Shown here piece after piece: positions 1,646 to 55,858 of a stretch of DNA of 64,000 nucleotides. Within the stretch, counting starts at the first letter, position 1, and every line of letters starts with the position of its first letter. The stretch covers positions 24,448,206 to 24,512,205 of the forward strand of contig NC_092400.1 in the NCBI RefSeq assembly GCF_030028105.1. The letters run 5' to 3'. Under the pieces are notes generated by a model. It was not told the DNA's origin. It made no database searches and saw only the letters and a list, made by a program, of their open reading frames with translations. The stretch comes from Mobula birostris. Lineage: Eukaryota. The position numbers and the translations under genes were made by a program.

Positions 1646-2810
1646 AGTTTAGAGGATCATGGGCCAAACACAGGTAAATGGATTTGAGTAGACATATTGG
1701 TTGTTATGAACAAGTTGGGACAAAAGGCCTATTTCCACCCTGCATACTTCTGTGCTCAGAGAGGGATGATTTCAATTTGGAACAATACAATCAGCTCTAT
1801 TTTGTCTCATTGAAACAACGGAAGAGATATGGGAATCACAGAGGTGAAATAGATTAGCAGGAGCCATTCATTCCATTGAATCCAAATCAGCTCTTGTAGA
1901 GCAATCCTCTAGCCCTATTCTGCCATTCTTTTCCTACAGCCCTGCAGCGTACAATTTCCTTTTGAAAGTGATTTGATTCTAGTTCCACACAGATTCTATT
2001 TGCCCACCTCTGAACCTACGGCCCCCGGTTTTCTAGTCACCTTCTCTCCATGCTCATCTTTTAGAACTCTGGCACTTAGTCAATGTAAAATTTTTTTTAA
2101 ATGCCGATGTTGGAAAAGTGAAACAAAAAAAAAATAACAGTAAGGCAGGTAACACTTGTGAAAGAAGGAAGAGTGCAAACATTTCAGGCTATAGGCTCTT
2201 CAGAACTGGGGAAAGGAACACAGTTTTGTTCCAAGCTTCAGTGAAGGTCTTTTATTCCTCCTCTGTTGGCTGGAAATCCTCTATCTTTCTCCATGTGAGA
2301 ATGTATCTCAGCAATAATGGAAATATCTGATCCCTAAAGATAATCTAATCTAATCTTCAGTTATATTTTTGTCTGCCAGTATCATCATATATTACAGTGA
2401 TCAGCTCTGGCATCTCTCTGGGCTTCGCAACTTCTCTCTGTGACACTTCTCCTGTGTCATCTGGTTTCCTCCTATGAGTTAAAAATGAACTGGTGGTTAG
2501 GTCAATTGTTTACTGTAGCTTGTCCCAAGTGTGGACGGGTGACACTTGTAGAGATCAAAAAGCTTTTTTGTGAGTAAGTTAAACTTCCAACCAGTAATTT
2601 CTGTTCAGCTTCTTGTCATAAACAGGAGCCAGTCTTCAGTTTCTAATGTAAATTGCCAGCAATAATCAGTCTAAAGTAAAAAAAAAGCTTTTCAAACAAA
2701 CAGTGCTGTCTTTAGACCTCAGGCAATTGTCCAACAACATAGGGCTGACTACTCAAGTAAGTTAATTGGGTTATGTTAATTGGGCTTGTATCAAACCAGC
2801 CAACACAGGC

Positions 2811-3355
2811 TGGTCTCCATACTTGAGGAAGGATATACTGGCTTTGGAGGCAGTGCAGAGGAAGTTCACCAGGTTGATTCCAGGGATGAAGGGGTTAACC
2901 TATGGGGAGAGATTGAGTTGCCTGGAACTATACTGTCTGGAGATCAGAAGAATGAGAGAGTTTCTTATAGAAACATACAAAATTTTGAAAGGGATAGATA
3001 AGATAGAAGTAGGAAAGTTGTTTCTATTGGTAGGTGAGACTAGAGTGAGGGGACATTGCCTCAAGATTCAGGGGAGAAGATCTAGGACAGAGATGAAGAG
3101 AAACTGTTTTTCCCAGAGAGTGGTGAATCTGTGGAATTCTCTGCCCAGGAAAGCAGTTGAGGCTTCCTCACTAGATGTATTTAAGAAACAATTAGATAAG
3201 TTTTTACATAGTAAGGGAATTAAGGGTTTTGGGGAAAAGGCAGGTAGATGGAGCTGAATTTATAGACAGATCAGATATGATCTTACTGAATGGCGGGTAG
3301 GCTCGATGGGCTGGATGGCCTACTCCTGCTCCTATTTCTTATGTTCTTATGTTAT
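2811..3355 (+). mobile_element. CR1 LINE 3' fragment
   Basis: ORF WSPYLRKDILALEAVQRKFTRLIPG...FSQRVVNLWNSLP; CR1 3' UTR with TTCTTATG repeat tail. Confidence 0.92.
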
Positions 3356-4500
3356 GTAAGTTATTTAGTTCAAGGAAGTTTGCAGACAACTTTGATACTA
3401 TCACTTAGAACATCAAAAAGCTGATCGATCAATAATTGGAAGATTTTTGTACTCAGATAGTTAACATACACAACATTAATTTTGAGTGCTTGGGAACTCT
3501 GTAACCAGAAACATTTAGAACATTTGTGTGATAAGGTATCTGAAAAATTATCACAAGTCACCTAAGTGGCAAAAAAAAAAGGATTAAATGTTAGAGAGCA
3601 GTCTTGCTTGTTAGGAATGGTCAAGGAACAGCAAGAAGAATGACAGGAAGATGCAATGAAATCAAATCCATTCCTCTGCCTTTGATTTCTGCATTTGTCT
3701 GCTACTCATTGGTTTGTCATTTTAGCTTACTGGAACTGTTTAGGAGATCTCTTTTTTTTTAGAAATCATTTGTAATTTGGACATCTTTTGTCAGATTTAA
3801 ATATGGTTTAAGAAGTTTTAGTGTATCACTAAAAAAGTGTACTACTTTGTTAGCTGTAAGTATCTCCTCCTTAGTAGGGCAAGGGGACCCACTTCTCTAA
3901 TGCTGGGTATTGGCAGCTAAACTTGCATGGAGAATAAACAGGGAAGTGATCTAGTCTTTGAAGACTAGGTGACTACAGTATAGCCCTCCCTTAAGTGAGG
4001 GTACCTATAGGATAGGTCTTAAGATCCTTGCTTGAGTGTAGAACTTCACAGCCAGCAAACCCAATGCTATCGCAAAAGGAACATGTATACAAAACCTAGT
4101 TGGCCACGCCAGTAGAACACTGCATGAGTTCCATTAAACTGAAGCCCCATCTGCTCTAAAAGCATCATTAGCTCTCGTTCTGAAAGCAACATTCTGAAGA
4201 ACATTGAAATCTAAAATAAATCAGAAAATGCTGGCAATACTTGGAAGGCCAGGGAGAAATTGTGGAGAGGAAAACATTGTCAATGTTTCTGGTCAGCAAA
4301 CTATCATTACAACTGTTGAGAGGTCAATACAACATTACAAGGTCAATGTAACATTTTGAGAACTAACTGCGTTCTGATTAGTTGACATAGGTCTAATCGT
4401 AAGTGACCTTTCTTCAAAATACTTTTAATGCTTGATTAATGCCTTGAGAAACTGTAAGGTTGAATGAAAGTCCTTAATCTATAAAGAAGGTGAAGGCCTC

Positions 4501-7826: not shown

Positions 7827-8478
7827 TAGATTATAAGGACAGTCAGTCCTCGTTTATTGTCATTTAGAAATGCATGCATTAAAACATGATACAATGTTCC
7901 TCCAGAGAGATATCACAGAAACACAGGACAAACCAAGACTAAAACTGACAAAACCACATAATTATAACATATAGTTACAACAGTGCAAAGCAATACAGTA
8001 ATTTGATAAAGAGCAGACCTGGGCATGGTAAAAAAAGTCTCAAGTCCCGATAGCTCCATCATCTCACGCAGATGGTTAAAGGGAGAAACTCTTCCTGCCA
8101 TGAACTTCCAAGCACCGCAAACTTGCCGATGCATTGGAAGCACCCTACCGCAGCCGACTCTGAGTCCGCCCGAAAACTTCGAGCCTTCGACACCGAGCAC
8201 CAAGCGCCATCCTCTGCCAAGTGCCTCGAGCCCACCCCGGCCACCGAGCAACAAGCAAAGCCAAGGACTTGGGGCCTTCCGCTCTGGAGATTCTGGACCA
8301 CACAGTGGCAGTGGCAGCGAAGCAGGCATTTCAGAAGTTTCACCAGATGTTCCTCTGTGCTCTCACGTCTGTCTCCATCAAATCAGGATTGTGCACGGCA
8401 CTGTACTTGACAGATAACAGATATCATCAGCACCGGAGTGGCTGCTGCAGGCTGCGTCGCGCCGCTATCTTCTCCTCC
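7827..8478 (-). mobile_element. ~650 bp CpG-rich non-autonomous retroposon, copy 1
   Basis: Closely similar to 15243-15897 and 61297-61980; AATAAA, 3' hairpin and TAATC tail on the minus strand. Confidence 0.85.
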
Positions 8479-10044: not shown

Positions 10045-12052
10045 TATAGTATCAATTCCAAAGAAGAAACATACAATTAGCCAGAAAAACAGCACACCTG
10101 AGGACTGGGAGAAATTCGGAGTCCAGCAGAGGAGGACAAAGGGCTTAATTAGGAAAGGGAAAAAAAATTATGAGAGAAAGCTGGCAGGGAACATAAAAAC
10201 TGGCTGTAAAAGCTTTTATAGATATGTGAAAAGAAAAAGATTGGTTAAAACAAATGTAGGTCCCTTACAGTCAGAAACAGGTGAATTGATCATGGGGAAC
10301 AAGGACATGGCAGTTGAATATTGAATAACTACTTTGGTTCTGTCTTCACTAAGGAGGACATAAGTAATCTTCCAGAAATAGTAGGGGACCAAGGGTCTAA
10401 TGAGATGGAGGAACTGAGGGAAATACATGTTAGTAGGGAAGTGGTGTCAGGTAAATTGAAGGGATTAAAGGCAGATAAATCCCCAGGGCCAGATGGTCTG
10501 CATCCCAGAGTGCTTAAGGAAGTAGCCCAAGAAATAGTGGATGCATTAGTGATAATTTTTCAAAACTCTTTAGATTCTGAATTAGTTCCTGAGGATTGGA
10601 GAGTGACTAATGTAACCCCACTTTTTAAAAAAGGAGGGAGAGAGAAACCGGGGAATTATAGACCAGTTAGCCTGACATCGTTGGTGGGGAAAATGCTAGA
10701 GTCAGTTATCAAAGGTGTGATAACAGCACATTTGGAAAGCGGTGAAATCATCGGACAAAGTTAGCATGGATTTGTGAAAGGAAAATTATGTCTGACGAAT
10801 CTCATAGAATTTTTTGAGGATGTAACTAGTAGAGTGGATAAGGGAGAACCAGTGGATGTGGTATATTTGGATTTTCAAAAGGCTTTTGACAAGGTCCCAC
10901 AAAGGAAACTTAAAGCACACCATATTGGGGGTATGGTATTGATGTGGATAGAGAATTGGTTGGCAGACAGGAAGCAAAGAGTGGGAATAAACGGGACCTT
11001 TTCAGAACGGCAGGCAGTGACTAGTGGGGTACCGCAAGGCTCAGTGCTGGGACCCCAGTTGTTTACAATATATATAAATGACTTAGACAAGGGAATTAAA
11101 TGCAGCATCTCTAAGTTTGCAGATGACACGAAGCTGGGCAGCAGTGTTAGCTGTGAGGAGGATGCTAAGAGGATGCAGGGTGACTTGGATAGGTTAGGTG
11201 AGTGGGCAAATTCATGGCAGATGCAATTTAATGTGGATAAATGTGAGGTTATCCACTTTGGTGGCAAGAACAGGAAAACAGATTATTATCTGAATGGTGG
11301 CCGATTAGGAAAAGGGGAGGTGCAACGAGACCTGGGTGTCATTGTACACCAGTCATTGAAAGTGGGCATGCAGGTACAGTGGGGGGTGAAAAAGGCGAAT
11401 GGTATGCTGGCATTCATTGCAAGAGGATTCGAGTACAGGAGCAGGGAGGTACTACTGCAGTTGTACAAGGCCTTGGTGAGACCACACCTGGAGAATTGTG
11501 TGCAGTTTTGGTCCCCTAATCTGAGGAAAGACATTCTTGCCATAGAGGGAGTACAAAGAAGGTTCACCAGATTGATTCCTGGGATGGCAGGACTTTCATA
11601 TGATGAAAGACTGGATCGACTAGACTTATACTCGTTGGAATTTAGAAGATTGAGGGGGATCTTATTGAAACATATAAAATTCTAAAGGGATTGGACAGGC
11701 TAGATGTAGGAAGAGTGTTCCCAATGTTGGGGAAGTCCAGACGAGGGGTCACAGTTTGGGGATAAAGGGGAAGGTTTTTAGGACTGAGATGAGGAAAAAC
11801 TTCTTCACACAGAGAGTGGTGAATCTGTGGAATTCTCTGCCACAGGAAACAGTTGAGGCCAGTTCATTTGCTATATTTAAGAGGGAGTTAGATTTGGCCC
11901 TTGTGGCTAAAGGGATCAGAGGGTGTGGAGAGCAGGCAGGTACAGGGTTCTGAGTTGGATGATCAGCCATGATCATACTGAATGATGGTGCAGGCTCGAA
12001 GGGCCGAATGGCCTACTCCTGCACCTATTTTCTATGTTTCTCTGTTTCTATG
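10045..12052 (+). mobile_element. 5'-truncated CR1 LINE with disrupted ORF2 reverse transcriptase
   Basis: KSPGPDG, NYRPVSLTS, YLDFQKAFDKVP, GVPQGSVLGP, FADDTKL; in-frame stop near 10762 and frameshift near 11660; TTCTATGT tail. Confidence 0.96.
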
Positions 12053-13233
12053 TTAACAGAGGGAAGGAGCACCTTACACCTCCTTTGTTAGAGACGAATC
12101 TCCAGCCTGCCACCCAAAACTACAACAATGCTTAAACTATATTGAATGCCAATTTAGATATGAACAAGAAAGTCTGTTCTGTTATCCTGGCCACTTTGGA
12201 ATAACCTAACTGGATTTGTACCTTGCTTTACTGTGGCATTTGGATGAGTGCAGGAACACGATCTCTTGTTTTCTCTTTCTTGAATACATTGAAAACATGT
12301 TGGTCAGTGATTATATCTGAAGGCGGGGACAAAACCAGCATTTACAATGTCTGCAGCTTGGAGGGAACGAGAGGAAGTTATGGAGCAAAGGGGAAGAAGT
12401 TAGTTTAGAGAGTTGGCGTGGGGATGAGGAAGAGCGGCTGAAGATCCTGAAGCATCGTATGATTAATTATTGACAAAACCTTTGATGACTCTGAAAATCA
12501 GTGTGCAGCAAGGTCAGCAAATGGAATTCTCCTTATTCTGCTTTTTCTCCATGTAGATTTTGGCTGTGGGAATAGCACTTTACAGGCAACTTCCCAAGAT
12601 ACATAAGAGTTCTATTCTTAGGAGCTATCTGTAAGATGACTTCCCCATAAGTCTTAAGCACTCTTAAGTCTTCTATGACCTGATCCATTTTCTATCATAA
12701 TCCACGTCAATTCGCTCTCCATACATTTGCTATAATACTTTCATTTTATTCGATAATCGCCTGAAAACTATCCATAATTAAATTAATGGAATATATACTG
12801 TATCCACTCACTAATCAATACCATGATTTATTATTAGTATCTATACTTGGAGAAGCCAAATGGATTGCAACTCACTATTATATTTTTTTTCACTCAAGTT
12901 GGTAAAACCTCTGGTGCAGGCATAGCAAAGCAAACTGATTTCTCAATTGCTAGGATCTTTTGGACTATTCTAGTGGTGTTTAGTGTTGTCGCTTTCTGGG
13001 GATTTACATAAATATTGCTGCGTCGGTCTAATTGTTTATTACTATTGTGTAGAACCTTTGGGATGATACCAGTCGACGATATTACTTTTGGGAAAATGTA
13101 TACCATGTTCATGTTCTATAGTCTTTCAATTTCCTCTTTTAATTCAGCATTTTTCTGGTGTTTTTCACATTGATTTCTGGATGTTATGTGTGTTTGGAAT
13201 GGCTATGCCTATTAAGTAAGTTGTTCTTGCTAG

Positions 13234-14094
13234 TGTTACAAGAATCACCCCTTGTAATAATGATCAGTGAGGCACAGAGAATCTGTATTTACCAACAAGT
13301 AACTTCTATTATTTCTACTGGAGGCACATGGGTTCACACTCTTATCTACCTGTGTGGTCCCTACTAGAACCCCTGACACTCCAAGGAGGTCAATGAAGAG
13401 AAAAGGTATTACCTGGGAAAGGAGCCTACGCTGGCCGGGCGTTCCTCATGGTCCCAATCTCCACGTGCCCATTGGGTCCTCCTTATCCGCGATGGTTGGT
13501 CCCTGGCTGCTGGAGAGTTATCGCCCCTGCGTATTTGGAGCTCCTGAGTCTTATGCTGTTTCTCATCAATTGAACCATTGGCTCTCCGCCCCATTGGCTC
13601 AAGGTCACCTGACCCACCTGGGTCACCTTCTTACTGGTCATTGTACAGGGCTACAGCCAACATTGTTCCATGTCTCTGCCCACCCCAGCCTTGTGTATTT
13701 GTGCCTTTACACTCTGACTGGTCCAAACCAGTTTAAATGAGGCAACCCAGACAGAGTCTAACAATATTACAGCTTGCTTCTTTGGCATTTTACATAACAA
13801 GTAGCTACTCCTCTGAGAATGGTCTCAAGTTTATTGCTCTGATTAGGTTGTCCCAGAGTCAAGAATCAATTCAGAGTCCATTCCCTTTACATAACAAATA
13901 GCTACTTTTTTTGAGAATGGTCTCAGGTTTAGCAGATCATTACTTGAAACTTCCTGTGTCCACATTCAGTTGCTCTGATTAGATTATCCAAGAGCACTAA
14001 TTATGTTCAGAGTCCACAAAATGGGGGAAACAAAGGCAACTAGCTTGTCTGCTTCCCCTGTCCTTGATTAGACTGCAGTTTCTTCTGCCCAACA
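13234..14094 (-). mobile_element. Solo LTR (861 bp) inserted in the R4/Dong RLE domain
   Basis: TGTTACA...CCCAACA ends; 4-bp TSD CTAG/CTTG; removal restores the host reading QDKQARTT; internal duplicated block; CCAAT boxes. Confidence 0.8.
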
Positions 14095-15242
14095 CTTGTT
14101 TATCCTGTAATATTATATCTGGATGGTTATTATGGATTGTCCTATCTGTAATAATGGATTGGTTGTAATATAATTTGTAGGACTCTGATTCCAAAACTGT
14201 TTCAGACCTGTACTTATAAGGTATGGTGCCTTTTATGAACATGTATTTTAAAGCAAGATTTTGGTGAGTATGTTTGCCACTTGATTGTGCCTGTGTAAGT
14301 AATCAGATTGAGTTAAACTGTTGCAGGATCCTGTAGTATGTTGGATTGTTTTTGGTTTCTCTCGGCATTTTCTGCATTTATTGTCTTGAATTTGATGGTC
14401 TTTTATTATGTATTTTTGATAAATTTTGTGTTAAACACTTGGTCCTGTATTGTCACCAGGAACCCCTTTGTTTCTGGAAAGAAGCCTCCAAGTCTCCGAC
14501 AAGCATTTGACACTTCCTTGTCAACACTGAATCATCTCAGATTGTGGGGATGTCTTCCATGGAGGTTCATGGTCTTCCCCAGTTAACTTTTTCTTCTATA
14601 GTGGAAAATTCTTCCATTTTTCTGGGTTGTGCTTTCATTTAAGTTTAGTAGTGCATACTTCTTATCAGAAATGCATATGCTTGCGTAGAGTGCTGAGCCC
14701 TGTTTTCATTGATGAAAATATGTCCTTAGGGGTTTTATTTGACCATTACGTAAACTTTTTATGTCTGTTCTTACTTTTCCTCCTTCTGTCCTGGGTAGTG
14801 TTAATCTAAGTGTCTTCGAGTATACTGTACATAGTGTTTTCTAAAATTTGTCGTTTCTGTTCTTATTTTTCCACTGGAAATTTTCCAGATTGGCTTTAGA
14901 CCAAGTTATTATACCAAAAGAATGCTTTAATATGGGTATAGCGAAAGTGTTTATTGCCTTTGTTATATTTTTACTATTGAGTCCTGTGAGTGGTGATTAG
15001 TTGCGGGATACAAGATACAAGATTTTCTTAAACCTTGAAGTAATTTCTGTCCAATGTTTTCACTGTATCGCACAATGATCTATTTTCTTTCCTTGTTGAT
15101 ATCCCAGATACTTATATCTTTCTTCTTCATCCATTGGTTGTATTGTATCCTGCTACTCTGTTTTGTATACTATTAGCTCCGTTACACCTTTCTTTTGCTT
15201 AATGTTCTGCATTTATCCACTCCAAAGTTCATGTTTATATCC

Positions 15243-15897
15243 AGGAGGAGAAGATGGCGGCGCGACGCAGCTTGCGCAGCCACTCCGGTGAATGATATCT
15301 GTAATTTGTCAAGTAGGGTGCCCTGCACAATCCTGATTTGATGGTGACAGATGTGAGAGAACAGAGGAACATCTGGAGAAATTTCTGAAATGCCTTTTTC
15401 GCTGCCGCTGTTACTGTGTGATCCAGAGTCTCCGGAGGGGAAGGCCCCTTGGCGACCAGGACAGGGTTGAAGAGCTCGGCAGAGATGGTGCTCGGTGTTT
15501 GGTGTCGAAGGGCTGGTCGGAGGCTTGAAGTTTTCAGACGGACTCAGAGTCGGCTGTGGTCGGCTGCTTCCAATGCATCGACATTTGTCGGTGTCTGGAG
15601 GTTTATGGCAGAGAGAGTTTCTCCCTTCCGCCGCCTGCTATAGGAGACTATCGGGAGTCGATCAGAAATTTGAGACTTTTTTTTACCGTTCCCATGGTCG
15701 GCTCTTTATCAAATTATGGTATTACTTTGCACTGCTGTAACTATATGTTATAATTATGTGGTCTTGTTAGTGTTAGTCTTTGGTTTGTCCTTTTTTTTGT
15801 GATATCACTCTGGGCGAGCATTGTATCATTTCTTAATGCATGTATGCACTTCTAAATGACAATAAACGAGGACTGAGTGTCCTCATAATCTAATCTA
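15243..15897 (+). mobile_element. ~650 bp CpG-rich non-autonomous retroposon, copy 2
   Basis: Starts GGAGGAGAAGATGGCGGCG; ends AATAAAC-GAGGACTGAGTGTCCTC-A(TAATC)n; ATATC on both flanks; interrupts the R4 RT. Confidence 0.88.
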
Positions 15898-17711
15898 ATA
15901 TCTCTAAAAAATAGTACTATTATTTGAATTAAGTGTTTTAGCTTTACTGATGAAGAAGTGTACAATTTCAAATTGTTCATGTACAGAAGATGTGTCAAGG
16001 TATAATTTGTTTGGATATCTCTGATTTGATACCCTATTTTCATCCAATTCAGTAAATTAGAGAGTAGGTTTAAAGCTAGAGAAAACCATAGTAGGCTTAA
16101 ACAGTCGGCCTGGAAAATGCCTTGGTGTATTTTGATAACGGTGGTTATTCTTTTTTGGTTGTTAATAAATAAGGAGATTATAGTATGCCAATGGTTCATC
16201 AGATGCAATAGGAATTTCACAAGTATTGGGTGTAGTTTATATATATTAAGAGCTTCTATTAACGTGAATGTGGGACAGAAACAAATGCCTTTTGGTAGTC
16301 AATATAACATGAAAGATTTCTGCATTTCTTCAGGGCTTGATTTAGAATTACAGAATCTATTATCAGTTGTTCTTTACATCCTTTCATGCCCTTATGGCAT
16401 CCTTTCTGCTCTTCTGTAAGCATACTGTGGTTATCTACAGTAAGTGAGTGGTGATTAGTTGCAAGATACAAGATGTTACCATTTTATAAATAGTTTGTAA
16501 ACATGTAATAGGACAATATTTTGATGGATCGTCTGTGATTTCCCCTGTGGGTAAAAGATATGTTTAACCTTCTGTCGAAAATTCAGCCACTTTTTCAGGA
16601 ATTTTAAGAAAAATGTTGGTATGTATTAATCAGTACAGATGAAGGCAGGTAACTTTTTTATCCCAATATTTATCATTATAATCACTGCATACATGTTTTA
16701 TAACTGCTTTTAGCATATCTATTATAACTTCAGGTGTTTGTATGTCTTCAATTGTGTGAGTGTATTCTTTTTCCTTCCAAATTCAGCTTACTTTTTAATG
16801 GTGCATCACCCTGTTTGACTAGATATTAAACTAAAAGTTCATTGTATCTCTGTAGGTGATTCTTTGCTAGGGTTGGTGACATTTTGGTGTGTTGAATCTA
16901 GTTTCAATGTCCTGTATAAAGTTTGTTTTTATTATTCCTGAACTCATAATTCTGTTTACTTTGTCTTTCGCATTTCATGTATTTATTAAGTCTGTCTTTG
17001 TATACACCAAGCTTTTGTTTTAGTCTATCTTTCATTAGGCAGATCATATCATGTATGGACCTTATATTTCTTTAGTATTTTCTTAGCTTTTCTCTTAACT
17101 TTCTTTCTCAAGTTATCTATTTTGTATTCCATTAGGCGGGCTATTTCTGCCCCTAAGGTTCAATTTTGTTTCTTAATCTCTTCTGCCATTTCAGTGTTCT
17201 TGTTTCATTGCTCAGTTTTGGGTCTCTATTAATGGCTGTGTCTAATTTGGAGCCATTGCACTGCACTGCTGTTAATGCTGCATAGTACGGTATTATGTGT
17301 AGTTCTTCAAATGTTTCAAGTTTTCCTAAATATGGTGGTAATATAGTATTTTTGAAATCATTAACAATTTTTATGAATTTTGGTGACGTGTTTTGTTTTG
17401 GTATGTATGGTCTTTGTGTTGGGTCAGTGTCCATGTATTCTGTTAGAGTGTTGTTAAATGTTAGAATATTTTTGTCTGTAAACTCAGCTTCATTATCAGT
17501 ATTCTGTAGAGGCCTTACGTCTGTGTTGTTGCTATTACCGTTAGGTTGTGGAGCAGTTGTTGGAGTAATGCTATTTTCATCACCGTTTCGGGGTGTGGCA
17601 CCTTCATTATATTCTTGTACAGCATTGTTGTGGTCTTTGAGTTGGTTTCTTTCTAGCTCTTGCCCTGCATCATGTTTTATTTGGTTTAACAATCTATAGA
17701 GATTAATCAAA

Positions 17712-18702
17712 TCACAAACAAGAGCAAGTCTGCAGGTGCTGGAAACCTGAGCAACACACACACAAAATTCTGGAGGAACTCAGCAGGCCAGGCAGCATCT
17801 AAGGAAAAAAGTACGGTCGACGTATTTGCTAATTGCCAGCTGCTTTTGGAGGAAGGCCCCTGTACTCGAGCGGTTCCTCCCTCTCTCTTCTGATGGGGCG
17901 AGAGGGAGCCTGTCGGTTCTCGAGACGGGAGTCTTGGAGGAGCAACGTGGAAGATGATAACATCAGAACAGCAAGTTGCTGATCTCAGCTCGCATTGTTG
18001 CAGGAGTGATCTCTCTCTCCCTTGTTGGGAAAGAGAGCCTGTCTGAGATACTGAAGTGCTAGATTATGGACTGTAGCTGGATGGACTCTGGATTAAGGAC
18101 TCTTTGGGGCTTCCACTGTGAAGTGCATTGTAGGTTGTTGGGGTGGGAGGGTCAGTGCTTCTGCAGGTGTGGGTGGGGGGAGAAGTAGAGTCGATACTTT
18201 CGCTGCTGCTTATGCAAAGGCAGGGGGCTTTGGGGCTTGGGTGCTTCTATCATTCATTCTAGTGGCTTTCTTTGTTTGGTGGGTCCCCACCACCACCCAG
18301 ATCATGCTCTCTTCTTGCTGCTGTAATCAGGTAGAAAGACCAAGAGCCTCAGGACCACCAGGTTCAAGAACAGTTGCTACCTCTCAACCATCAGGTTCTT
18401 GAATAAAAGGGGATAACTGCACTCAACTTCACTTGCCCCATCACTGAAGTGTTCCCACTACAAATGATCTCATTTCAAGGACTCTTTGTCTCATTATCTC
18501 ATGGTTTCATTATTTATTGCCATTTACATATTTATATCTGCATCTGCAGTTTGTTGTCTCCTGCACTCTGGTTGATCTTTCTTTGATCCTGTTATAGTTA
18601 CTATTCTATAGATTTGCTGAACAAGTTCACAAGAAAATGAATCTCAGGGTTGTATATAGTGACATACATGTACGTACATAATAACATTTATGTTGAGCTT
18701 TC
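17712..18702. mobile_element. Composite insert in R4: Penelope terminal fragment (-), non-autonomous Rex1-tailed family piece (+), Rex1 3' end (+)
   Basis: 17712-17823 Penelope tail; 17830-18282 homologous to the reverse of 33700-34200; 18283-18702 Rex1 3' region. Confidence 0.7.
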
Positions 18703-19301
18703 CTACTCGTTGTGCATTTACTTGCATGAAGAGATACTGCAGATGAAGTTTGTCCATGTATGCTGTCAAGCCTCAAGTTCTGTTACTTGATAATATACAC
18801 GCAGTATGAATGCGATTACTCCTAATGACCAATTCATGGGTGTCTTCCTTTTCTTAACTGCTTGAGTGGTCTCTGTTGTAAGTGAACTTCTCCCCTGAGG
18901 AATGCCTGCAGCAGGCACAGCCTGTGGTGTTGTTGGGCTCCTTTGAATGCTGGCAGTATCTTTTTCGGTTTTCCTGGTGCCTACCGACCTATTCAGCAGT
19001 GCACCACTAGCGGTTTGCCAACTGTCAGGGCCAATGCTAGCCCCAGGCATGCCCTGGAAATCCCCAGGCAGTGGCTGTATTACTCTATCCTGTCGACACC
19101 TCTCCATTTCTAAAGAGAAAGCATATTGCTTTTCATACCTGCAGCTACCCTTTGGTTTCAACCACCCTTAACATGGAGAACAGACTTTCCAAAAGTTAGC
19201 TCATTTGTAACTAGGGTAGTCTTTGTATATACTGGCCCAATACTGGGTTACTACCCAATGGGTGATTACTACCCTCAGGGAGGGAGGGGGAACAGGAGAT
19301 G

Positions 19302-19810
19302 AACTCAGTGACCACTTTATTGGTACACCTGTACAGCTGCTTATTAATGCAAATGTTTTATCAGTCAATCATGTGGCAGCAACTCAGTGCATAAAAGCGT
19401 GCAGACGTGGTCAAAAGGTTCAGTTGTTGCTCAGACCAAACATCAGAATGGGGATGAAATGTGATCTAAGTGACTTTGACGGTGGAATGATCGCTGTTGC
19501 CTGCCGGGTGGTTTGGGTATCTTGGAAACTACTGATCTCCTGGGACTGTAATGCACAACACTCTCTAGAGCTTACAGTGAGTGGTGCAAAAAAACAAAAA
19601 TAAATCCAGCGAGCGGCAGCTCTGTGAGCAAACTGCTTGGTTAATAAGAGAGGTCAGAGAATGTCTAGACTGGTTCAAGCTAACAGGAAGGTGACAGTAA
19701 TACAAAAAACCATGTGTGACAGCAGTGGTGTGCAGAAGAGCACCTCTGAATGCACAACACATTGAACGTTGAAGTTAAAAGGCTACAGCAGCAAAAGGCC
19801 AGGAACATAT
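19302..19810 (+). mobile_element. Internally deleted Tc1-like transposon, copy 1
   Basis: Left TIR CTCAGTGACCACTTTATTGGTACACC; transposase N-terminus MGMKCDLSDFDGGMI...GYSSKRP. Confidence 0.88.
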
Positions 19811-21798: not shown

Positions 21799-23286
21799 GA
21801 ATCAGAATGAGGTTTAATATTACCAGCGTATGGAGTGAAATTTGTTAACTTTGTGGTTGTACTACAATGCAATCAATACATGATAAATATAGAAAAAAAT
21901 GAATTACATGTATATATATTAAATAGCTAAATTAAATAAGTAGTGCATAAATAGAAACTAATAACATATTCAGAAAGTCAGAAGGCATGGGATCCAGGGA
22001 AGTTTGGCCAGGTGGATTCAGAATTGGCTTGCCTGCAGAAGACAGAGGGTCATGGTAGAGGGAGTACATTCAGATTGGAGGATTGTGACTAGTGGTGTCC
22101 CACTAGGATCGGTTCTGGGATCGCTACTTTTCGTTATTTTTATTAATGACCTGGATGTGGGGGTAGAAGGGTGGGTTGGCCAGTTTGCAGACGACACAAA
22201 GGTTGGTGTGTTGTAGATAGTGTAGAGGATTGTCAAAGATTGCAGAGAGACATTGATAGGATGCAGAAGTGGGCTGAGAAGTGGCAGATGGAGTTCAACC
22301 CAGAGAAGTGTGAGGTGGTACACTTTGGAAAGACAAACTCCAAGGCAGAGTACAATGTAAATGGCAGGATACTTGATAGTGTGGAGGAGCAGAGGGATCT
22401 GGGGGTACATGTCCACAGATCCCTGAAAGTTGCCTCACAGGTAGATAGGGTAGTTAAGAAAGCTTATGGGGTGTTAGCTTTCATAAGTCGAGGGATAGAG
22501 TTTAAGTGTTACGATGTAATGATGCAGGTCTATAAAACTCTGGTTAGGCCATACTTGGAGTACAGTGTCCAGTTCTGGTTGCCTCACTATAGGAAGGATG
22601 TGGAAGCATTGGAAAGGGTACAGAGGAGATTTACCAGGATGCTGCCTGGTTTAGAGAGTATGGATTATGATCAGAGATTAAGGGAGCTAGGGCTTTACTC
22701 TTTGGAGAGAAGGAGGATGAGAGGAGACATGATAGAGGTGTACAAAATAATAAGAGGAAAAAATAGAGTGGATAGCCAGCGCCTCTTCCCCAGGGCACCA
22801 CTGCTCAGTACAAGAGGACATGGCTTTAAGGTAAGGTGTGGGAAGTTCAAGGGGGTATTAGAGGAAGGATTTTTACTCAGAGAGTGGTTGGTGCGTGGAA
22901 TGCACTGCCTGAGTCAGTGGTGGAGGCAGATACACTAGTGAAGTTTAAGAGACTACTAGACAGGTATATGGAGGAATTTAAGGTGGGGGGTTACATGGGA
23001 GGCAGGGTTTGAGGGTCGGCACAACATTGTGGGCAGAAGGGCCTGTACTGTGCTGTACTATTCTATTCTATAACAAGTAGTGAAGTTTTGTTCATTGGTT
23101 CAATGTTCATTTAGAAATCTGATGGCAGAGGGGAGGAAGCTGTTCCTGAATCACTGAGTGTGTGCTTTCAGGCTTCTGTACCTCCTTCCTGATGGTAGCA
23201 ATGAGAAGAGAGCATGTCCTGGGCGGTGGGGTCTTTAATGATTGATGTGGCCTTTCTGAGGCACCGTTCCTTGAAGATGTCTTGGA
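21799..23286 (-). mobile_element. Rex1/Babar 3' fragment split by CR1 21967-23070
   Basis: GAATCAGAAT tail at the left end; host sequence resumes near 23075; ATAACA on both sides of the CR1. Confidence 0.75.
21967..23070 (+). mobile_element. 5'-truncated CR1 LINE
   Basis: SGVPLGSVLG, FADDTKV, FNPEKCEVVHFG, ERVQRRFTRMLPG; (TTCTA)n tail. Confidence 0.95.
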
Positions 23287-26236: not shown

Positions 26237-26640
26237 AGGCTGCTTCCTTCCCACTAGTTTCTACAACGTTTTCCCAAAGTGTTTATTTTCTTATCTAGCC
26301 ATTCACAGGACGTAGATATCGCTGATTAACTTGATCAGTTCTTACACAGGGCAGTTAAGATCCAATTGAGTTGTTGTGGGTCTCAAGGCAGATACAGACC
26401 AGATCAGGCTTAGCCAGCAGATTTCCTTTTCTGACATCATCTTTTTACGTGGGCCCTGAGTTTCCAGTGGAGAATAAGCCGTTGATGACTTCCCAGTTGG
26501 AGTTCATCAATATTTCTGTAATCCGTTGTATCTACTGTACAGCAAATCACCCTATACAGCTTCACTAGAGCCCTGTTGGCCAGCCTTACCTGTTCCTACC
26601 TCTCGTGATGGGAACAGAGGTGAAACATTGGTGAACCATG

Positions 26641-27195
26641 CACACAGTGGCGAATTTACTAGGTACACCTGTACACCTTCTAGAAAATGCAAATGTCTAA
26701 TGAATTAATTGTGTGGCAGCAACTCAATGCATAAAAACATGCAGACGTGGTCAAGAGGTTCAGTTGTTCTTCAGACCAGACATCAGAATGGGGAAGAAAT
26801 GTGATCTAGGTGGCTTTGACAGTGGAATGATCGTTGGTGCCAGATGGGTTGGTTTGAGTATCTCAGGAACTGTCGATCTCCTGGGATTTTCAAACACGTC
26901 GTTCTTTAGAGTTTACAGGGAATTGTGTGAGAAACAAAAAACATTCAGTGAGCAGCAGTTCTGAGGGCGAAAATGCCTTGTAATGAGAGAGGTCAGGGGA
27001 GAATGGCCACACTGCTTCAAGCTGACAGGAAGGTGACGGTAACTCAAATAATCATGCATAACAAAAGTAGTGTGCAGGAGACCATCTCTGAACACGCAAT
27101 GCATCGAATTTTAGAATGGGTGGTCTACTACAGCAGAAGGCCATAAACATACAACCATGCACTTCAGGGGGTAATTAATAAAGTGGCCACTGGTG
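26641..27195 (+). mobile_element. Internally deleted Tc1-like transposon, copy 2, with both TIRs
   Basis: MGKKCDLGGFDSGMIVGARWVGLSISGTVDLLGFS; TIRs CACACAGTGGCGAATTTACTAGGTAC and GTAATTAATAAAGTGGCCACTGGTG. Confidence 0.88.
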
Positions 27196-28969: not shown

Positions 28970-31900
28970 TGTACCATATACCTCCTGTACATGGTGCAGG
29001 AGGGAGGGCTTCAGATTTATAGATAATTGGGCAGTTTTCCAGGGAAGGTGGGACCTGTTCCGATGGGATGGTTTACATCTGAACTGGAGAGGGACAAATA
29101 TTCTTGCAGGTAAGTTTGCTAGAGAGGCTTCAGTGAATTTAAACTAGATACGGGGGCGGGGGACGCGGAGTATAGGAACAGATGTAGGGGAAAAGGAAGA
29201 AAAAGAAAATAGTAAAGTTGTTTGCACAGTTGGTGATAAACAGAGAGTAAGAGATGGAAAATTTCTTAAATGCATTTGTTTTAATGCTAGGAGCATTATA
29301 AGAAAGGTGGATGACCTTAAAGCATAGATTGATACCTGGAAGTATGATGTGTTAGCTATTAGTTAAACATGGTTACAGGAGGGGTATGATTGGCAACTAA
29401 ATATTCCTGGATTTAATTGCTTCAGGTGTTTTAGAATGGGAGGCACAAGAGGGGGAGGTGTTGCATTGCTTGTCAGAAAAGATATTACAGTGGTGCTCTG
29501 GCAGGATAGGTTAGAGGGCTTGTCTAGGGAGGCTATTTGGGTGGAATTGAGGAATGAGAAAGGTGTAGTAACACTTATGGGGGTGTATTATAGACCACCA
29601 AATGGGGAGCGAGAATTGGAGGAGCAAATTTGTAAGGAGATAGCAGATATTTGTAGTAAGCACAAGGTTGTGATTGTGGGAGATTTTAATTTTCCACACA
29701 TAGACTGGGAAGCCCATGCTGTAAAAGGGCTAGGTGGTTTAGGGTTTGTAAAATGTGTGCAGGATAGTTTTTTGCAGCAATACATAGAGGTACCAAATAG
29801 AGAAGGGGCAGTGTTAGATCTTCTGTTAGGGAATGAGATAGGTCAGGTAACGGAGATTTGTGCTGGGGAGCACTTTGGGTCCAGTGATCACAATGCCATT
29901 AGTTTCAATATAATAATGGAGAAGGATAGGTCTGGACCCAGGGTTGAGATTTTTGATTGGAGAAAGGTTAACTTTGAGGAGATGCGAAAGGATTTAGAAG
30001 GAGTGGATTAGGACAATTTGTTTTATGGGAAGGATGTAACAGAGAAATGGAGGTCATTTAAAGGTGAAATTTTGAGGGTACAGAATCTTTATGTTCCTGT
30101 TAGGTTGAAAGGAAAAGTTAAAAGTATGAGAGAGCCATGGTTTTCAAGGGATATTGGAAACTTGGTTCGGAAGAAGAGAGAGATCTACAATAAATATAGG
30201 CAGCTTGGAGTAAATGAGGAATATAAAGAATGTAAAAAGAATCTTAAGAAAGAAATTAGAAAAGCTAAAAGAAGGTATGAGGTTGCTTTGGCAAGTAAGG
30301 TGAAAATAAATCCCAAGGGTTTCTACAGTTATATTAATAGCAAAAGGATAGTGAGGGATAAAATTGGTCCCTTAGAGAATCAGAGTGGACAGCTATGTAT
30401 GGAGCCAAAAGAGATGGGGGAGATTCTGAACAATTTCTTTTCTTTATTATTCACTAAGGAGAAGGATATTGAATTGTGTAAGATAAGGGAAACAGGTAGG
30501 GAAGTTATGGAAACTATGATGTTTAAAAAAGAGGAAGTACTAGTACTTTTAAGGAATAAAAAAGTGGATAAGTCTCCGGGTCCTGACAGGTTATTCCCTA
30601 GGACCTTGAGGGAAGTTAGTGTGGAAATAGCAGGGGCTCTGACAGAAATATTTCAAATGTCATTAGAAACGGGGATGGTGCCAGAGGACTGGCGTATTGC
30701 TCATGTTGTTCCATTGTTTAAAAAGGGTTCTAAGAGTAAACCTAGCAATTATCAGCCTGTGAGTTTGACGTCAGTGATGGGTAAATTGATGGAAAGTATT
30801 CTTAGAGATGGTATATATAATTATCTGGATAGACAGGGTCTGATTACGAACAGTCAACGTGGATTTGTGCGTGGAAGGTCATGTTTGACAAATCTTATTG
30901 AATTTTTTGAAGAGGTTACTAGGAAATTTGACGAGGGTAAAGTGGTGGATGTTGTCTATATGGACTTCAGTAAGGCCTTTGACAAGGTTCCACACGGAAG
31001 GTTAGTTAGGAAGATTCAATCGTTAGTTATTAATATTGAAGTAGTAAAATGGATTCAACAGTGGCTGGATGGGAGATGCCAGAGAGTAGTGGTGGATAAC
31101 TGTTTGTCAGATTGGAGGCCGGTGACTAGTGGTGCGTCTCAGGGATCTGTACTGGGTCCAATGTTGTTTGTCACATACATTAATGATCTAGATGATAGGG
31201 TGGTAAATTGGATTAGTAAGTATGCAGATGATACTAAGATAGGTGGAGTTGTGGATAATGAAGTAGGTTTTCAAAGCCTGCAGAGAGGTTTAGGCCAGTT
31301 AGAAGAGTGGGCTGAAAGATGGCAGATGGAATTTAATGCTGATGAATGCGAGGTGCTACATTTTGGTAGGACAAATCAAAATAAGACATACATGGTAAAT
31401 GGTAGGGCATTGAAGAATGCAGCAGAACAGAGGGATCTAGGAATAATGATGCATAGTTCCCTGAAGGTGGAATCTCATGTGGATAGGGTGGTGAAGAAAG
31501 CTTTTGGTATGCTGGCCTTTACAAATCAGAGCATTGAGTATAGGAGATGGGATGTAATGTTGAAATTGTACAAGGCATTGGTAAGGCCAAATTTGGAGTA
31601 TTGTGTCCAGTTCTGATCACTGAATTATAGGAAAGATGTCAACAAAATAGAGAGAGTACAGAGAAAATTTACTAGAATGTTACCTGGGTTTCATCACCTA
31701 AGTTACAGAGAAACGTTGAACAAGCTGGGTCTTTATTCTTTGGAGCGTAGAAGGTTGAGGGGGACTTGATAGAGGTGTTTAAAATTATGAGGAGGATTGA
31801 TAGAGTTGACGTGGATAGGCTTTTTCCATTAAGAGTCAAACAAGAGGACATGAGTTGAGAGTTAAAGGCCAAAGTTTAAGGGTAACATGAGGGGGAACTT

Positions 31901-32317
31901 CTTTACTCAGAGAGTGGTAGCTGTGTGGAATGAGCTTCCAGCAGAAGTGGTTGAGGCAGGTTCAATGTTGTCATTTAAAGTTAAATTGGATAGTTATATG
32001 GACAGGAAAGGAATGGAGGGTTATGGGCTGAGTGCAGGTCGGTGGGACTAGGTGAGTGTGAGAGTTCGGCACGGACTAGAAGGGCCGAGATGGCCTGTTT
32101 CCGTGCTGTAATTGTTATATGGTTATATAGCCTACTGTATAATATGGGACTATTTTATGTCATAGTAACATGTTATTGAGCATGCGCTATTAGGCGCGTA
32201 TTGATCTGGATATATGTGTTCAGTTTGGGTTCCGTAAGTAAGAACTCCTGTTAATTTAGCTCCAGTCTCTAGCGTTTTTATTAATGATATTGTTGTGTGA
32301 TGGCCACATACACAACA
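28970..32317 (+). mobile_element. Short solo LTR (~200 bp) split by the 3.1 kb CR1
   Basis: TGTACC at 28970 and CACAACA at 32317; flanks CTAGC/TTAGC; CR1 flanked by CCTCCTGTA/CCTACTGTA. Confidence 0.6.
28990..32127 (+). mobile_element. CR1 LINE: ORF1 C-terminus (SGNH esterase) plus full-length but disrupted ORF2 (APE endonuclease and RT)
   Basis: WCRREGFRFIDNW...DGLHLNWRG; GGGVALLV, VYYRPP, IVGDFNFP, SDHN; YMDFSKAFDKVPH, YADDTK; several premature stops; GTTATATG tail. Confidence 0.96.
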
Positions 32318-45018: not shown

Positions 45019-47225
45019 TTCAAGGTTGACTATGGATGTTATACCCTAACTATTCATGTTGTTGGTGCAGTGGCTGACAAGATCAATGTGAGAGTGGCAG
45101 TCTCTTTTGCAAAGGTCACATCTATCAATGGTCTCATTTCTGCTGGAGATGCAGCATTTCTTTCTATGGGCCCATTTGCCTTCTCCTGGTTTCAGGAATT
45201 TTTCCTTGCCTGATCTAAGGTGTTGTTTCAGGGTTCGTTTCCATCTGGTGCAGTCGGCTGCAGGTTCCTGCCATGACGCAGCGTTGATGTCCATCACCTT
45301 CATTTTCCACTTGCAGACATGCTTGTAGCACAGTTGTGGGCGCCAGCGGTTCTCTTGCCTGAAGCCAGCTCACCATAGAGGATGTCTTTTCAGATGTGAC
45401 CATCCCGCGTGCGACAGACATGGCCCAGCCTACGCTGCATGAGCAAGGTGTGCACACTAGAGAGGCTGGCAAGAGAGAGAACCTCCATCTATGTCTCTCA
45501 ATGAAGTGCACAAAATGCGATGAAGGCTCCTTAAATGGAAGGCAATGAGCCTTCTCTTCTGCTTAATGTGCTGTTGTCCAGGTCTCTCTGTTGCACAGCA
45601 GTGTACTGGTGACACTGGTGCTGTACACTGCCACCTCTGTTTTGACTGGGACCTTGGAGTTCTCCCATACTTTTGTGATGAGGCAGGCAAGAGTTGTGGC
45701 AGCCTTTCTAATGCACTTGTCGATTTCTGTGTCCAAGGAGAGGTCTTCACTGATGATGTACCCCAGATACTCTGTATGTGAACTGAGGAACAACATCCTG
45801 TTTGCAGTTATCAACGATAATGGCTGGTGGTGCCTTCACATCTTATCCTAAGACCGCTTATGTGAAAGTGCTCCGAAGAGCTGCTGTTGCACTCTTCACT
45901 CCCCTTCGTTTTGTTGTGGAAGGATCTGATCATGCTCGGTAGACTTGGTGGGCAGTGTACCTTAGAGAAGGTCTGAACGAGCCCATCTCCGCTGACCAAG
46001 TCAAATGCTTTGGTGAGATCAATAAACGCAATGTCTTCTGTTCTCTGCACTTCTCTTGGAGTTGGTAGAGAAAATCATGTCCACAGTTGACCTTCCAGCA
46101 AGGAAGCCACTTCGTGATTCTGGGGAGACACGTTCTGTAGACTGTCAAGGTTTCTGGAAGACCCCCTCACTCCAGACACTGGCACCAGATGGACTTGACC
46201 CTGGTCCTTGGTAGCATGCTTTTCATACGTTCCTACATAGTGCAGACCGCCACACCGACCACTCGCAAGATCAGACTGCAGTCAAAGAAGTCCCATTGTG
46301 CTAAACAAGAAGATAACTCCCACATTGATGTCAACAAGATGTCTCACCCAGACCTGCTGCAGCAGTTTGCGAAGTCCTTCGAGAAAGAAGTGAGCACCCA
46401 TCATCCTGTAAACTCTGTTGCAGAGAAATTGGAATTTCTGCAGAATGCCATCTATAGCACAGCCTTAACTACCTTTGGGAAGAAGACCTTGAAAACAAAT
46501 AACTGGTTCAAAGCCAAATCCAAACAAGACGACACCCATCATTGAATCCAAACGTGCTGCTCTTGCCGAGTATTGGTATTCACCAAATGAGAGGATCCTA
46601 CATATCCTCTGGGCTGCTAGAGGTAAAGTTCAGCGGACGGAAAGGCGCTGTGCTGGTGAATAGTGGATGCAGTTTAGTGAAGGTGCCCAGACCACAGCAC
46701 TGACAGGCAATGTCAGGGGTGGGTGGAATGCCATTAAGAAAGCCCCTTGCCCGTCTCAGAGCAAGATGGCTCCCATCAAGTCCATAAATGGGGAGGTAAT
46801 CACAGACAGGCAAATAGATGGGGGGATGGATAGAATATGACTCAGATCTCTACTCCAGAGTGAACACTGTCATCACTTCAGCCCTGGATGCCATTAAGTG
46901 CCTGCTGACAATGGAAGAACTGGATGCAGAGCTCAGCAAGGCCATCCACAGCTTGGCCTCAGGGAATGCAGTGGGCATTGATGGGATTTCCCTAGACCTG
47001 ATCAAGCACTGCATGACCACCCTACTGCACCCACTGCATGAAGTCCTCTGTCAGTGCTGGCAGGAAGGAGCTGGACCACAGGATTTGAGGGTATCCAGGA
47101 ATGTTATCCCCTATAAAACAAAGCTGAGATAAGCAGCTGTAACAACTCCAGGGGCATCTCCCTCTTGAGTGTTGTTGGCAAAGTCTTGGCCCTTTTCTTT
47201 TGGTCCGCCTACAGAAGATGGCTGA
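45019..47225 (-). mobile_element. RTE (BovB-like) LINE with inverted 5' half
   Basis: 45019-46146 on minus: QLQEKCREQ, AFIDLTKAFDLVS, YLG..IS, C-terminal CDLCKRDCHSHIDLVSH. 46147-47225 on plus: APE end (RHWHQMDL), GIDGI, CWQEG, NSRGISLLS. CTGTTG on both flanks. Confidence 0.88.
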
Positions 47226-50165: not shown

Positions 50166-52057
50166 GAGCCAGTAAAATGGTAACTAGTATACTAGATAGA
50201 GGGTGGAAGTTATGTAGCAACTACACAACATTAGATTACTCCTGGAAAACATAGGAGGAAGTGCTTTAGAGAGAAGTCTTTAGCCTTGGGTACATATAAT
50301 ATAGAACCAGTAGAATAATACTGAAACAAGGATCTTCCCCTTAGTAATAATGATTAGGGAGACACAGAGAGAATCAGTAATTATCAACAAGTACCGTTAC
50401 TGTCTCAACAGAAGAGCACATGAACTTATGTGTGCACCTACTAAGTTTTCCTGAGCCTCCAAGAACAGACAAAGAATAGAAAAGGTAATTCCTGTTAAAA
50501 GAAGTCTCTGCTGGTTATCTGGTCCTCATAGTCCCATTCTGAATCTCCATGTAACGTGCCCGTGGGGCACTCTACATCCACAATGATGGGTCATTGTTCC
50601 ACCACACCGGAAGCATCTGCTTTTATATTCAATCCTTACCAATTCAAATGTTGCAGTATTATTGACTAGGGGTCATTTGACTGACCTTTAATGCCTTCTT
50701 ATTGGCTCTGGTCCAAGCCAACATCCTTTTATTGTCCTTCTTTCTGCAAGTGACAACTGGTATCTTATGGCTCCTTGTTTTTTTCAGAAACTAGTTCGAA
50801 TCATTCAGGGCAGGCACAGACCCCAACATTCACAAACCTGCATGTTATATTATATCAAAGAACACTTCACAAATAACTTCTTATTTGGAAATTATCTCTA
50901 GTCCAGCAGATTACCTGAAGTATAATTGTGTCTACTTTAAAACATTACTCAAGCCAAGTAACTTCCATTCACAAAATGGAGGACATGGAGCCATTTCACA
51001 AAATGGCAGCCTCCATCGCCTTTGACTTCATGGCAAGAACAAAGACAACTGGTCTGTCTGCTTCTGCCATCTCTGATTCATTTGAATTTACTGTAGCTCT
51101 TTCTGGCCAATAATTCCTTTAGTCAAAAGGAGAGGTGACGGGAAAAAGTTGCTAATGTCTAAAATTTACTACTAGGTCCTTCAGGAACAAAGTTTGCAAA
51201 ACTTCTACATGCAAAAGATATAACTCTCTTTCACAAGTGATGATTGATGTTGAGTGAAATGTTAACTTAAAATTGGTGAACTTTTGATGACTTGAGGAAC
51301 GTGGAGCAAAGATGAGAATATGGATAAAGTCAGTTATAACTTCCCTGAATGGTGCAACAGACTTGTGAGGCTAAATGGGCTGATTCGAGTCCTATGTTTC
51401 TATGAGCTGGTGTTGGAATGATGCCCCAGTATGAATCATCTCCTTCAAGAAAGGAAGGGTAACAGAGAAAAACAGATGGAGAGCTGGAGATGAAAATGCA
51501 AAAAGTGAGAGCACCAGCTGGAAGACTCTGTTGAATAATATTTTAAAATTAATAATCCCTGATCAACAATTGAAAATACAGAATTAGTGAAGATGTACAT
51601 TGATTTCTATTGAAATTCAATATAATGGCTGGCATAAATATATCAATAATATTTGTCCTTTACAAATAAGGGTTAGAGTTCTGCTGGCAACAAACGGTAG
51701 CTAGGCAGAATTTACATTTTGTTTTCAGGAAGCTGTATGTGGCATTCAAACTGTAAATGTAGATCACTGCCCAACAGCTTTCATTACTGAGATAGTCCGA
51801 TCATTGGTGTGGTGGTAATGAAAGAGACCAGGGAGGGAAAAGCACAGGTAAAAATGATGCAAAAAGTGTCAGTTTTGTGAAAGAAATTTTTTTTTTACAG
51901 GAGTTGTTCAGTGATGGTTTTCACTCCGAGAACTGTGTTACTTTCTCAAACATATTGTGAGTTGTTCCAGTATTCAATGAAGAAATTAATAGACTTAGTA
52001 ACAGAAAACCAATGCAATATTGTGACTGACAGGATCACTTTCAGTGCTAAACTAATT

Positions 52058-55334: not shown

Positions 55335-55858
55335 TACATTCAGTGGCCACTTTATTAGGTACCCGCTAATAAAATGTATGTTTGGATCTTCTGCCTTTGT
55401 TGCCCATCCAGCTGAAGATTCAGAGATGCTCTTCTGCACACCGCCGTTGCAACGCGTAGTTACTTGAGTTACTCTCGTCTTCCTGTCAGCTTGAATCAAT
55501 CTGGCTGTTCTGCTCTGACCTCTCTCATTAACGAGGCATTTTCACCTCTCAGAACTGCCACTCAGAGGATGTCTAGTACTTTTCGCACATTTACTTTGGA
55601 GACTCTAGAGACTGTTGTGTGTGAAAATGCCAGGAGATCAGCAATCTGAGAGATCCTCAAATCAATCTGTCAGGCACCAACAATCATTCCATGGTCAAAG
55701 TCACTTACATCACATTCTGATGTTTGGTCTGAACCACAAAGGAATCTCTTGACCATGTCTATATGCTTTTATGCATTGAGTTGCTGTCACATGATTGGCT
55801 GATTAGATATTTGGACTAATGACCAAGTGTACCTCACAAAGTGTTCACTGAGTGGGTA
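55335..55858 (-). mobile_element. Internally deleted Tc1-like transposon, copy 3
   Basis: TIRs CATTCAGTGGCCACTTTATTAGGTAC and GTACCTCACAAAGTGTTCACTGAGTG; reverse-complement transposase N-terminus. Confidence 0.85.

Follow-up and report, generated by a model that had tools for sequence, protein, structure and literature searches.

A decayed Dong-type retrotransposon in Mobula birostris and its affinity to psyllid elements

A 64,000-nucleotide stretch of contig NC_092400.1 of Mobula birostris (hereafter the window, with positions counted from its first letter) carries on its minus strand a near-full-length, decayed copy of a Dong-type non-long-terminal-repeat retrotransposon of the R4 clade, and both the presence of the element and its Dong identity can be regarded as secure. 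The copy is dead, and its sequence gives no sign of present function. The element adds one member to a known clade and involves no new mechanism; what sets it apart is its position among insect proteins, for which the best reading is that an ancestor probably came into the cartilaginous-fish lineage long ago, transferred horizontally from a lineage associated with arthropods. On balance, though with more reserve, it appears that an insect-type Dong lineage, apart from Rex6, crossed from arthropods into an ancestor of some rays or sharks, expanded to hundreds to thousands of copies and died, a cross-phylum transfer of a retrotransposon with a restriction-like endonuclease (RLE) that would be undescribed.

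Anatomy and decay of the element

Removal of three nested inserts (Table 1) leaves 3901-3910 nucleotides (nt) with an AT content of 64%, compared with 58% for the window, in agreement with the AT-rich element of ~3.9 kb that an initial annotation, made from the letters of the window, had described; its call of a near-complete R4/Dong RLE element at 12876..19290 was borne out by tblastn, profile alignment and trees. Six-frame translation gives pieces of one long minus-strand open reading frame (ORF) between 19107 and 12951, tblastn pieces from 19101 to 12948 are collinear with Dong-type proteins from residue ~6-14 to the C-terminus, and the N-terminal piece matches residues 6-116 of the relative P0280 at 40% identity (tblastn, E 1e-16). 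Frameshift-aware alignment against a profile of 25 relatives yielded a read-through that spans 17458 to 12951 (1001 residues) and contains 13 frameshift calls; two of these fall at the points where inserts were cut out, which leaves ~11. The single long ORF with a central reverse transcriptase (RT) that characterizes the R4 clade is recognizable in this read-through and the N-terminal pieces, although the ORF is broken: the single ORF of the annotation was recovered as one reconstructed collinear frame but is not intact, with 16 stops in addition to the frameshifts.

A CCHC knuckle followed by a C-terminal PD-(D/E)xK endonuclease, another feature of the clade, is likewise present, though its Asp is mutated and its motif is split by a likely long terminal repeat (LTR). 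On the minus strand the RT motifs YIDYQKAF and GIFQAD lie at 16306 and 16121, the knuckle (C-x2-C-x8-H-x4-C) at 14376-14323, and the HPDII of the RLE at 14125-14111. Thus all three annotated domains (RT, CCHC and PD-D-K endonuclease) exist, but the catalytic residues are damaged: YMNN stands at 15989-15969 where YMDD is expected, the nuclease Asp has become Gly, and insert 1 divides the PD..D motif. Among the protein strings cited in the annotation, ISSTGIIPK and QKATTLNTTRIV are exact, whereas IDIAIPNTHNIQK reads IGIAIPNTHNIQK in the window. The element retains 77 of 94 near-invariant residues, compared with 92-94 of 93-95 in three relatives, which translates to ~0.2 substitutions per residue of post-death decay. 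Nine fragments of the element matched no relevant Pfam family and gave no RT match, although the relatives do carry PF00078.

The annotated 3' end was found as described, with A8 at 12883-12890 and TATAATA at 12876-12882. It is possible that TATAATA is a decayed TAA repeat; it is all that lies 3' of A8, the 5' flank is filled by other repeats, and neither side carries a (TAA)n array. The 5' boundary is placed only approximately at 19290, between the likely start codon at 19107 and a neighbouring repeat that begins at 19299. No target-site duplication (TSD) of the whole element was found at its two ends, and TGAGTT, which occurs on both sides, was rejected as a candidate, its 5' copy being the end of the repeat at 19299. 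The 5' region gave no ribozyme match in Rfam at E<=5, though decay would hide one; its fold z-score is -0.01, and its score of 2.5 with a descriptor resembling the hepatitis delta virus (HDV) ribozyme was equalled or exceeded by 21 of 40 shuffles.

Relatives, trees and distances

Similarity of the predicted protein to Dong-type proteins is far beyond chance. A phmmer search with a 123-residue RT piece matched 689 proteins, of which the best 150 were listed, and two follow-up protein searches contributed the best 120 of 2008 and the best 120 of 782 matches. Species names were attached to 21 of the 120 listed rows in one follow-up search (all insects) and to 39 of 120 in the other (38 insects and one row labelled Streptomyces), and cluster look-ups named a species, always an insect, for 1 of 10 and 2 of 10 entries; altogether, among the matches listed, insects account for 48 of the 49 relatives with a species name (331-332 proteins collected). 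The read-through is most similar to P0279 and P0214, at 49% identity over ~1015 residues, followed by P0280, P0201, P0203 and P0211 at 43-46%, all six of them without a species name. Compared with solved structures, a profile of the subclade finds R2 proteins at E 2e-48. With the RT fragment as query, a word-indexed search returned no relatives among 131 candidates. The Streptomyces row, P0323, is a full Dong-type protein from a contig of 3992 bp, labelled as an RNA-directed DNA polymerase of Streptomyces narbonensis; the bacterial record is probably contaminated with animal sequence. Within the insects, the Dong-type proteins of Vanessa (P0285) and Helicoverpa (P0200) are 0.30 apart, against 0.24 for Helicoverpa and Spodoptera, possibly a sign of transfer within Lepidoptera.

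Metagenome contigs supplied 11 related loci, none closer than 38-46% at the amino acid level. Among these relatives, a base run followed by (TAA)n closes L001 and L003, and L002 starts with (TAA)n, in line with the report that Dong targets TAA (PMC3812793; papers are cited here largely from excerpts); a 3'-terminal (TAA)n was seen in two of the seven relatives whose 3' ends were examined. Viral contigs yielded no relatives among 23 pattern matches, so that no viral vector was seen.

Trees were built with FastTree from the 219 of 331 proteins that cover the region from RT to C-terminus, and with IQ-TREE from 43 rows chosen among these, the window element being represented in trees and distances by its read-through. 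The insect rows are unannotated and were called Dong-type by their structure and TAA-flanked relatives; the Dong element of Bombyx mori is not in the set. The window element, P0214, P0279 and the psyllid elements form a clade of nine rows with support of 100/100, inside a clade of 11 rows (100/99), and the named moth, beetle and fly rows fall outside the clade that it shares with psyllids. The grouping persisted in a 25-row subset under LG+C20, with a Shimodaira-Hasegawa-like approximate likelihood ratio of 99, and in the RT phylogeny of those rows, the kind of tree that the initial annotation had proposed as a check, where the element nests with the psyllid elements at 96/94 from the RT only. 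Phylogeny of the RT, by which membership of the Dong lineage is judged, hence places the element with insect Dong-type elements, and, given a vertebrate host, the element tree is incongruent with the host tree. Monophyly of the 16 named insect rows to the exclusion of the window element was rejected by the approximately unbiased (AU) test (p-AU 1.8e-5), as was its grouping with three unnamed proteins of outgroup type (p-AU 1e-56), both constraint groups having been named after the first trees were seen. The three outgroup-type proteins are presumed to be Rex6-like.

Path lengths from the window element are 0.85-0.87 to its unnamed sisters, 1.08 to the element of Diaphorina (of which ~0.20 is post-death decay), 1.41 to that of Loxostege and 2.3-2.4 to the outgroup type, and the measured distances from Diaphorina to two moth elements are 1.23 and 1.37. 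The branch from the shared node to the psyllid elements is 0.52-0.57; psyllid and moth elements are separated by 0.6-0.7 on each side. Because this insect-side branch alone is shorter than half the psyllid-moth path, a slow clock in fishes cannot by itself explain the closeness. Psyllids and moths split ~380 million years (My) ago, and protostomes and deuterostomes >600 My ago. If the psyllid-moth distance reflects ~380 My of vertical descent, the branch of 0.52-0.57 corresponds to ~300-350 My, which roughly places the node well short of the protostome-deuterostome split, with the split from P0279 and P0214 younger; the clock is a rough one, and transfers among insects could distort it.

Age and origin of the lineage

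Sequencing data from four organisms (A to D; one run each, X1, X5, X9 and X11, of which X9 is small) were aligned to the window as contigs at 80% likeness. The segment 15900-17700 is present in all four, with best word shares of 0.82, 0.41, 0.14 and 0.09 in A to D; a skin-metagenome row with a share of 0.05 was set aside. In the same order, depth relative to unique flank is 2242x, 3584x, 54x and 1549x at the 3' end of the element and 62x, 79x, 2x and 37x at its 5' end; in X1 the RT lies at 565x, and X5, X11 and X9 show a similar gradient from 3' to 5'. Contig depth does not equal copy number and is read only as indicating a multi-copy family with strong 3' bias. The Dong family is multi-copy and strongly 3'-biased in all four organisms, the pattern of 5'-truncated copies of long interspersed elements (LINEs). 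Eight paralogous-looking pieces among those listed show 13.5-17.8% divergence from the window (values being censored at 20%), and a ninth, from organism D, shows 10.7% and may be an orthologue, while the flank in organism B differs by 1.5%. One contig of organism D, extending from 12138 to 12960, bridges the same 3' junction (10.9% differences, 32 gaps), so the insertion took place before A and D split. The family is old and common to the four organisms, and any transfer must be ancient. In X9 a 225-bp contig piece (16821-17045) is identical to the window despite the word share of 0.14, and organism C may be a very near relative of A that was sequenced sparsely.

The element nests in one clade with the psyllid elements and is closer to them (1.08) than they are to the moth elements (1.23-1.37), which makes an ancient transfer from arthropods to fishes the best reading. 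Horizontal transfer, suggested by the initial annotation, fits the distances; it is not proven by them, and the transfer, its direction and an age of hundreds of My are likely conclusions drawn from these data. Transfer within the R4 clade has been reported between mosquito genera (PMC7728395, as excerpted).

Several observations weigh against this reading. Affinity to insect R4/Dong elements, as annotated, emerged from both searches and trees, but the accompanying distinction from Rex6 is less complete, as no true Rex6 and no named vertebrate R4/Rex6 protein is in the tree and none of the 331 proteins has the Rex6 C-terminal motif deduced from a published primer. The excess of insects is biased, as the searches were seeded with insect-like sequence and dead vertebrate copies are rarely annotated, and the two closest relatives, P0279 and P0214, bear no species name and could be non-arthropod. 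Insects also hold several old paralogous Dong lineages: Cyamophila appears in two clades, with P0245 and P0263 1.53 apart. Outside insects, Dong elements are known from a snail (DongBg, PMC3812793), vertebrate R4/Dong elements are known with a patchy distribution (PMC4350176), and the excerpted supplement 6 of PMC7070016 tabulates Dong-R4 in 51 vertebrate rows, including Callorhinchus with one family of 170 copies. If that family belongs to the same lineage, entry would be older than ~400 My (PMC7070016, supplement 7) or repeated.

These observations bear on two other histories. In one, which seems rather unlikely, a slowly evolving Dong paralog descended vertically from a bilaterian ancestor, was kept in cartilaginous fishes and lost from other vertebrates, and the closeness to psyllids reflects old paralogy and sparse sampling. 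The coexistence of several Dong lineages in one insect genus, the Callorhinchus family and an insertion that preceded the separation of organisms A and D all suit such a history, as does the report, in the excerpted text of PMC9004415, of one pre-amniote Dong-R4 fossil in human together with the argument that patchiness often represents loss. Yet the node-to-psyllid branch falls below half the psyllid-moth path even though protostomes and deuterostomes parted long before psyllids and moths did, and the row order of the excerpted supplement 6 of PMC7070016 implies that the whale shark (Rhincodon) has no Dong-R4 row. In the other, quite unlikely, the subclade would be native to a different aquatic group (molluscs, worms or other marine invertebrates) that seeded both the ray lineage and psyllids, or would have moved out from fishes. 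Seven of the nine closest non-window rows, counted from the ten best without both psyllid rows but with P0170, have no species name, the nearest two among them, and beside the snail element the excerpts of cephalopod repeat papers mention Dong-R4; against this, all named outgroups around the clade are insects (Lepidoptera, Coleoptera, Diptera and Hemiptera). Contamination or mis-assembly of insect sequence has next to no probability: the protein is insect-like and the Streptomyces-labelled relative shows that database contamination occurs, but the element holds three host repeats, is heavily decayed and has multi-copy relatives in four organisms, and the organism D contig that runs from flank into element excludes it.

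RLE-type retrotransposons are usually regarded as passing mainly by vertical descent, and the R4 elements of vertebrates are grouped under the joint name Rex6/Dong. If the arthropod-to-fish transfer is true, cartilaginous fishes hold a second R4 lineage, one of insect type, the 'Dong-R4' elements of vertebrates do not share a single origin, and an old cross-phylum retrotransposon transfer is added in a poorly screened group; in the excerpted supplement of a 307-genome vertebrate screen, only two cartilaginous fishes were found among three genus names looked for. No account of an insect-type Dong element from sharks or rays turned up in the literature within reach, which lacks Repbase, Dfam, subscription journals and bioRxiv supplements, so that the family may be catalogued there; 'Dong' is absent from the main texts of PMC7070016 and bioRxiv 2024.12.18.629015 and from the supplements of PMC12400950.

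Inserts, neighbouring repeats and known systems

Self-BLAST of the window finds 13238-13460, 15244-15899, 17710-17821 and 18287-18702 repeated elsewhere in it, and no second copy of the ORF-bearing parts of the Dong element. No host gene was recognized in the window, and none of nine ORFs looked up is present in the protein collection. In every one of the four runs, contigs bridge insert 1 by joining 13229 to 14095; the 865 nt skipped equal 861+4, fitting a solo LTR with one TSD. Insert 2 reaches 61968x flank depth in X1 and 70959x in X5 but 705x in X11, and on this shallower depth it probably inserted after organism D split off.

Table 1. Components of the Dong/R4 element and its inserts in the window
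Feature	Position	Strand	Remarks
Whole Dong/R4 element with three nested inserts	12876..19290	-	5' end approximate
3' untranslated region (UTR), A8, TATAATA	12876..12950	-	
RLE second half and C-terminus	12951..13233	-	IGIAIP 13212; ISSTG 13082; QKATTLNTTRIV 12998-12963
Insert 1, likely solo LTR, 861 bp, TG...CA	13234..14094	.	4-bp TSD CTAG/CTTG
End of RT, thumb/linker, CCHC knuckle, RLE first half	14095..15241	-	
Insert 2, repeat like a short interspersed element (SINE), ends (CTAAT)n	15242..15897	+	5-bp ATATC on both sides
Rest of N-terminal region and most of RT	15903..17709	-	
Insert 3, composite of at least two abundant younger host repeats	17710..18702	.	Boundaries approximate; self-BLAST copies, depth peaks
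ORF start (ATG 19107) and first part, conserved N-terminal domain	18703..19107	-	tblastn
Putative 5' UTR, ~180 nt	19108..19290	-	

The repeat of insert 1 has a partial copy at 50326-50540, and in organisms A, B and D its depth is ~400-700x that of the flank. The SINE-like family of ~650 bp recurs at 7827-8478 and 61298-61977 besides 15242-15897, and is very deep in organisms A and B and ~100-fold shallower in D, a lineage-specific burst. The nested inserts and shared locus are usable as presence/absence markers, and the SINE-like burst likewise. A repeat of ~500 bp with Tc1-like ends adjoins the element's 5' end at 19299-19809, with further copies at 26638-27151 and 55418-55853. LINE copies of CR1 type lie at 10318-12055 (+), 29367-32121 (+), 22150-22938 (-) and 2766-3363 (+); two of them hold long open stretches, of 306 residues (Pfam RVT_1, E 2e-20) and 534 residues, and are on that account much younger than the Dong copy. 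Decayed coding fragments at ~46100-47150 (+) and 59441-59986 (-) look RTE-like and Penelope-like in motif style.

Judging from what is known of the family, the active single-ORF protein would have worked like R2: its N-terminal domain would bind DNA, the RLE would nick AT- or TAA-rich DNA, and the RT, starting at the 3' end of the RNA, would copy it by target-primed reverse transcription, leaving many 5'-truncated and few full-length copies. It may also have used a 5' HDV-like ribozyme, as in B. mori Dong, where self-cleavage has been shown (PMC3774820, as excerpted). The copy in the window then decayed and received its three younger inserts.

With Dong of B. mori, DongAg and DongBg the element shares a single ORF with RT, CCHC and RLE and an A-run with a TAA-like 3' end, and it nests among insect proteins of Dong type; it differs in being dead, in lacking a (TAA)n array or detectable 5' ribozyme, and in its vertebrate host. 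The R2 proteins (PDB 9nl3, 9dou, 9nl2 and 8gh6) are homologous from RT to RLE (profile E 2e-48 to 5e-21) but belong to another clade with another N-terminus, and the Dong copy is not in ribosomal DNA (no Rfam match in the window). Rex6, the teleost R4 element, and the Dong-R4 elements of squamates and marsupials are of the same clade and combine RT and RLE (PMC6274825, as excerpted); hand-translated primers for Rex6 (PMC3728117, as excerpted) give AYMERH and a C-terminal PGLW, whereas the window element has DYLHRH and no PGLW, a weak test with two short motifs. Closest among the named proteins in the matches listed, and in the same 100/100 clade, are the psyllid elements of Diaphorina citri (M8J77_011910) and Cyamophila willieti (WDU94_008928), which, compared at the protein level, share 44% and 46% identity with the window element by BLASTP (49% and 51% on trimmed columns), less than the unnamed P0279 and P0214 (49%, or 53-54% trimmed).

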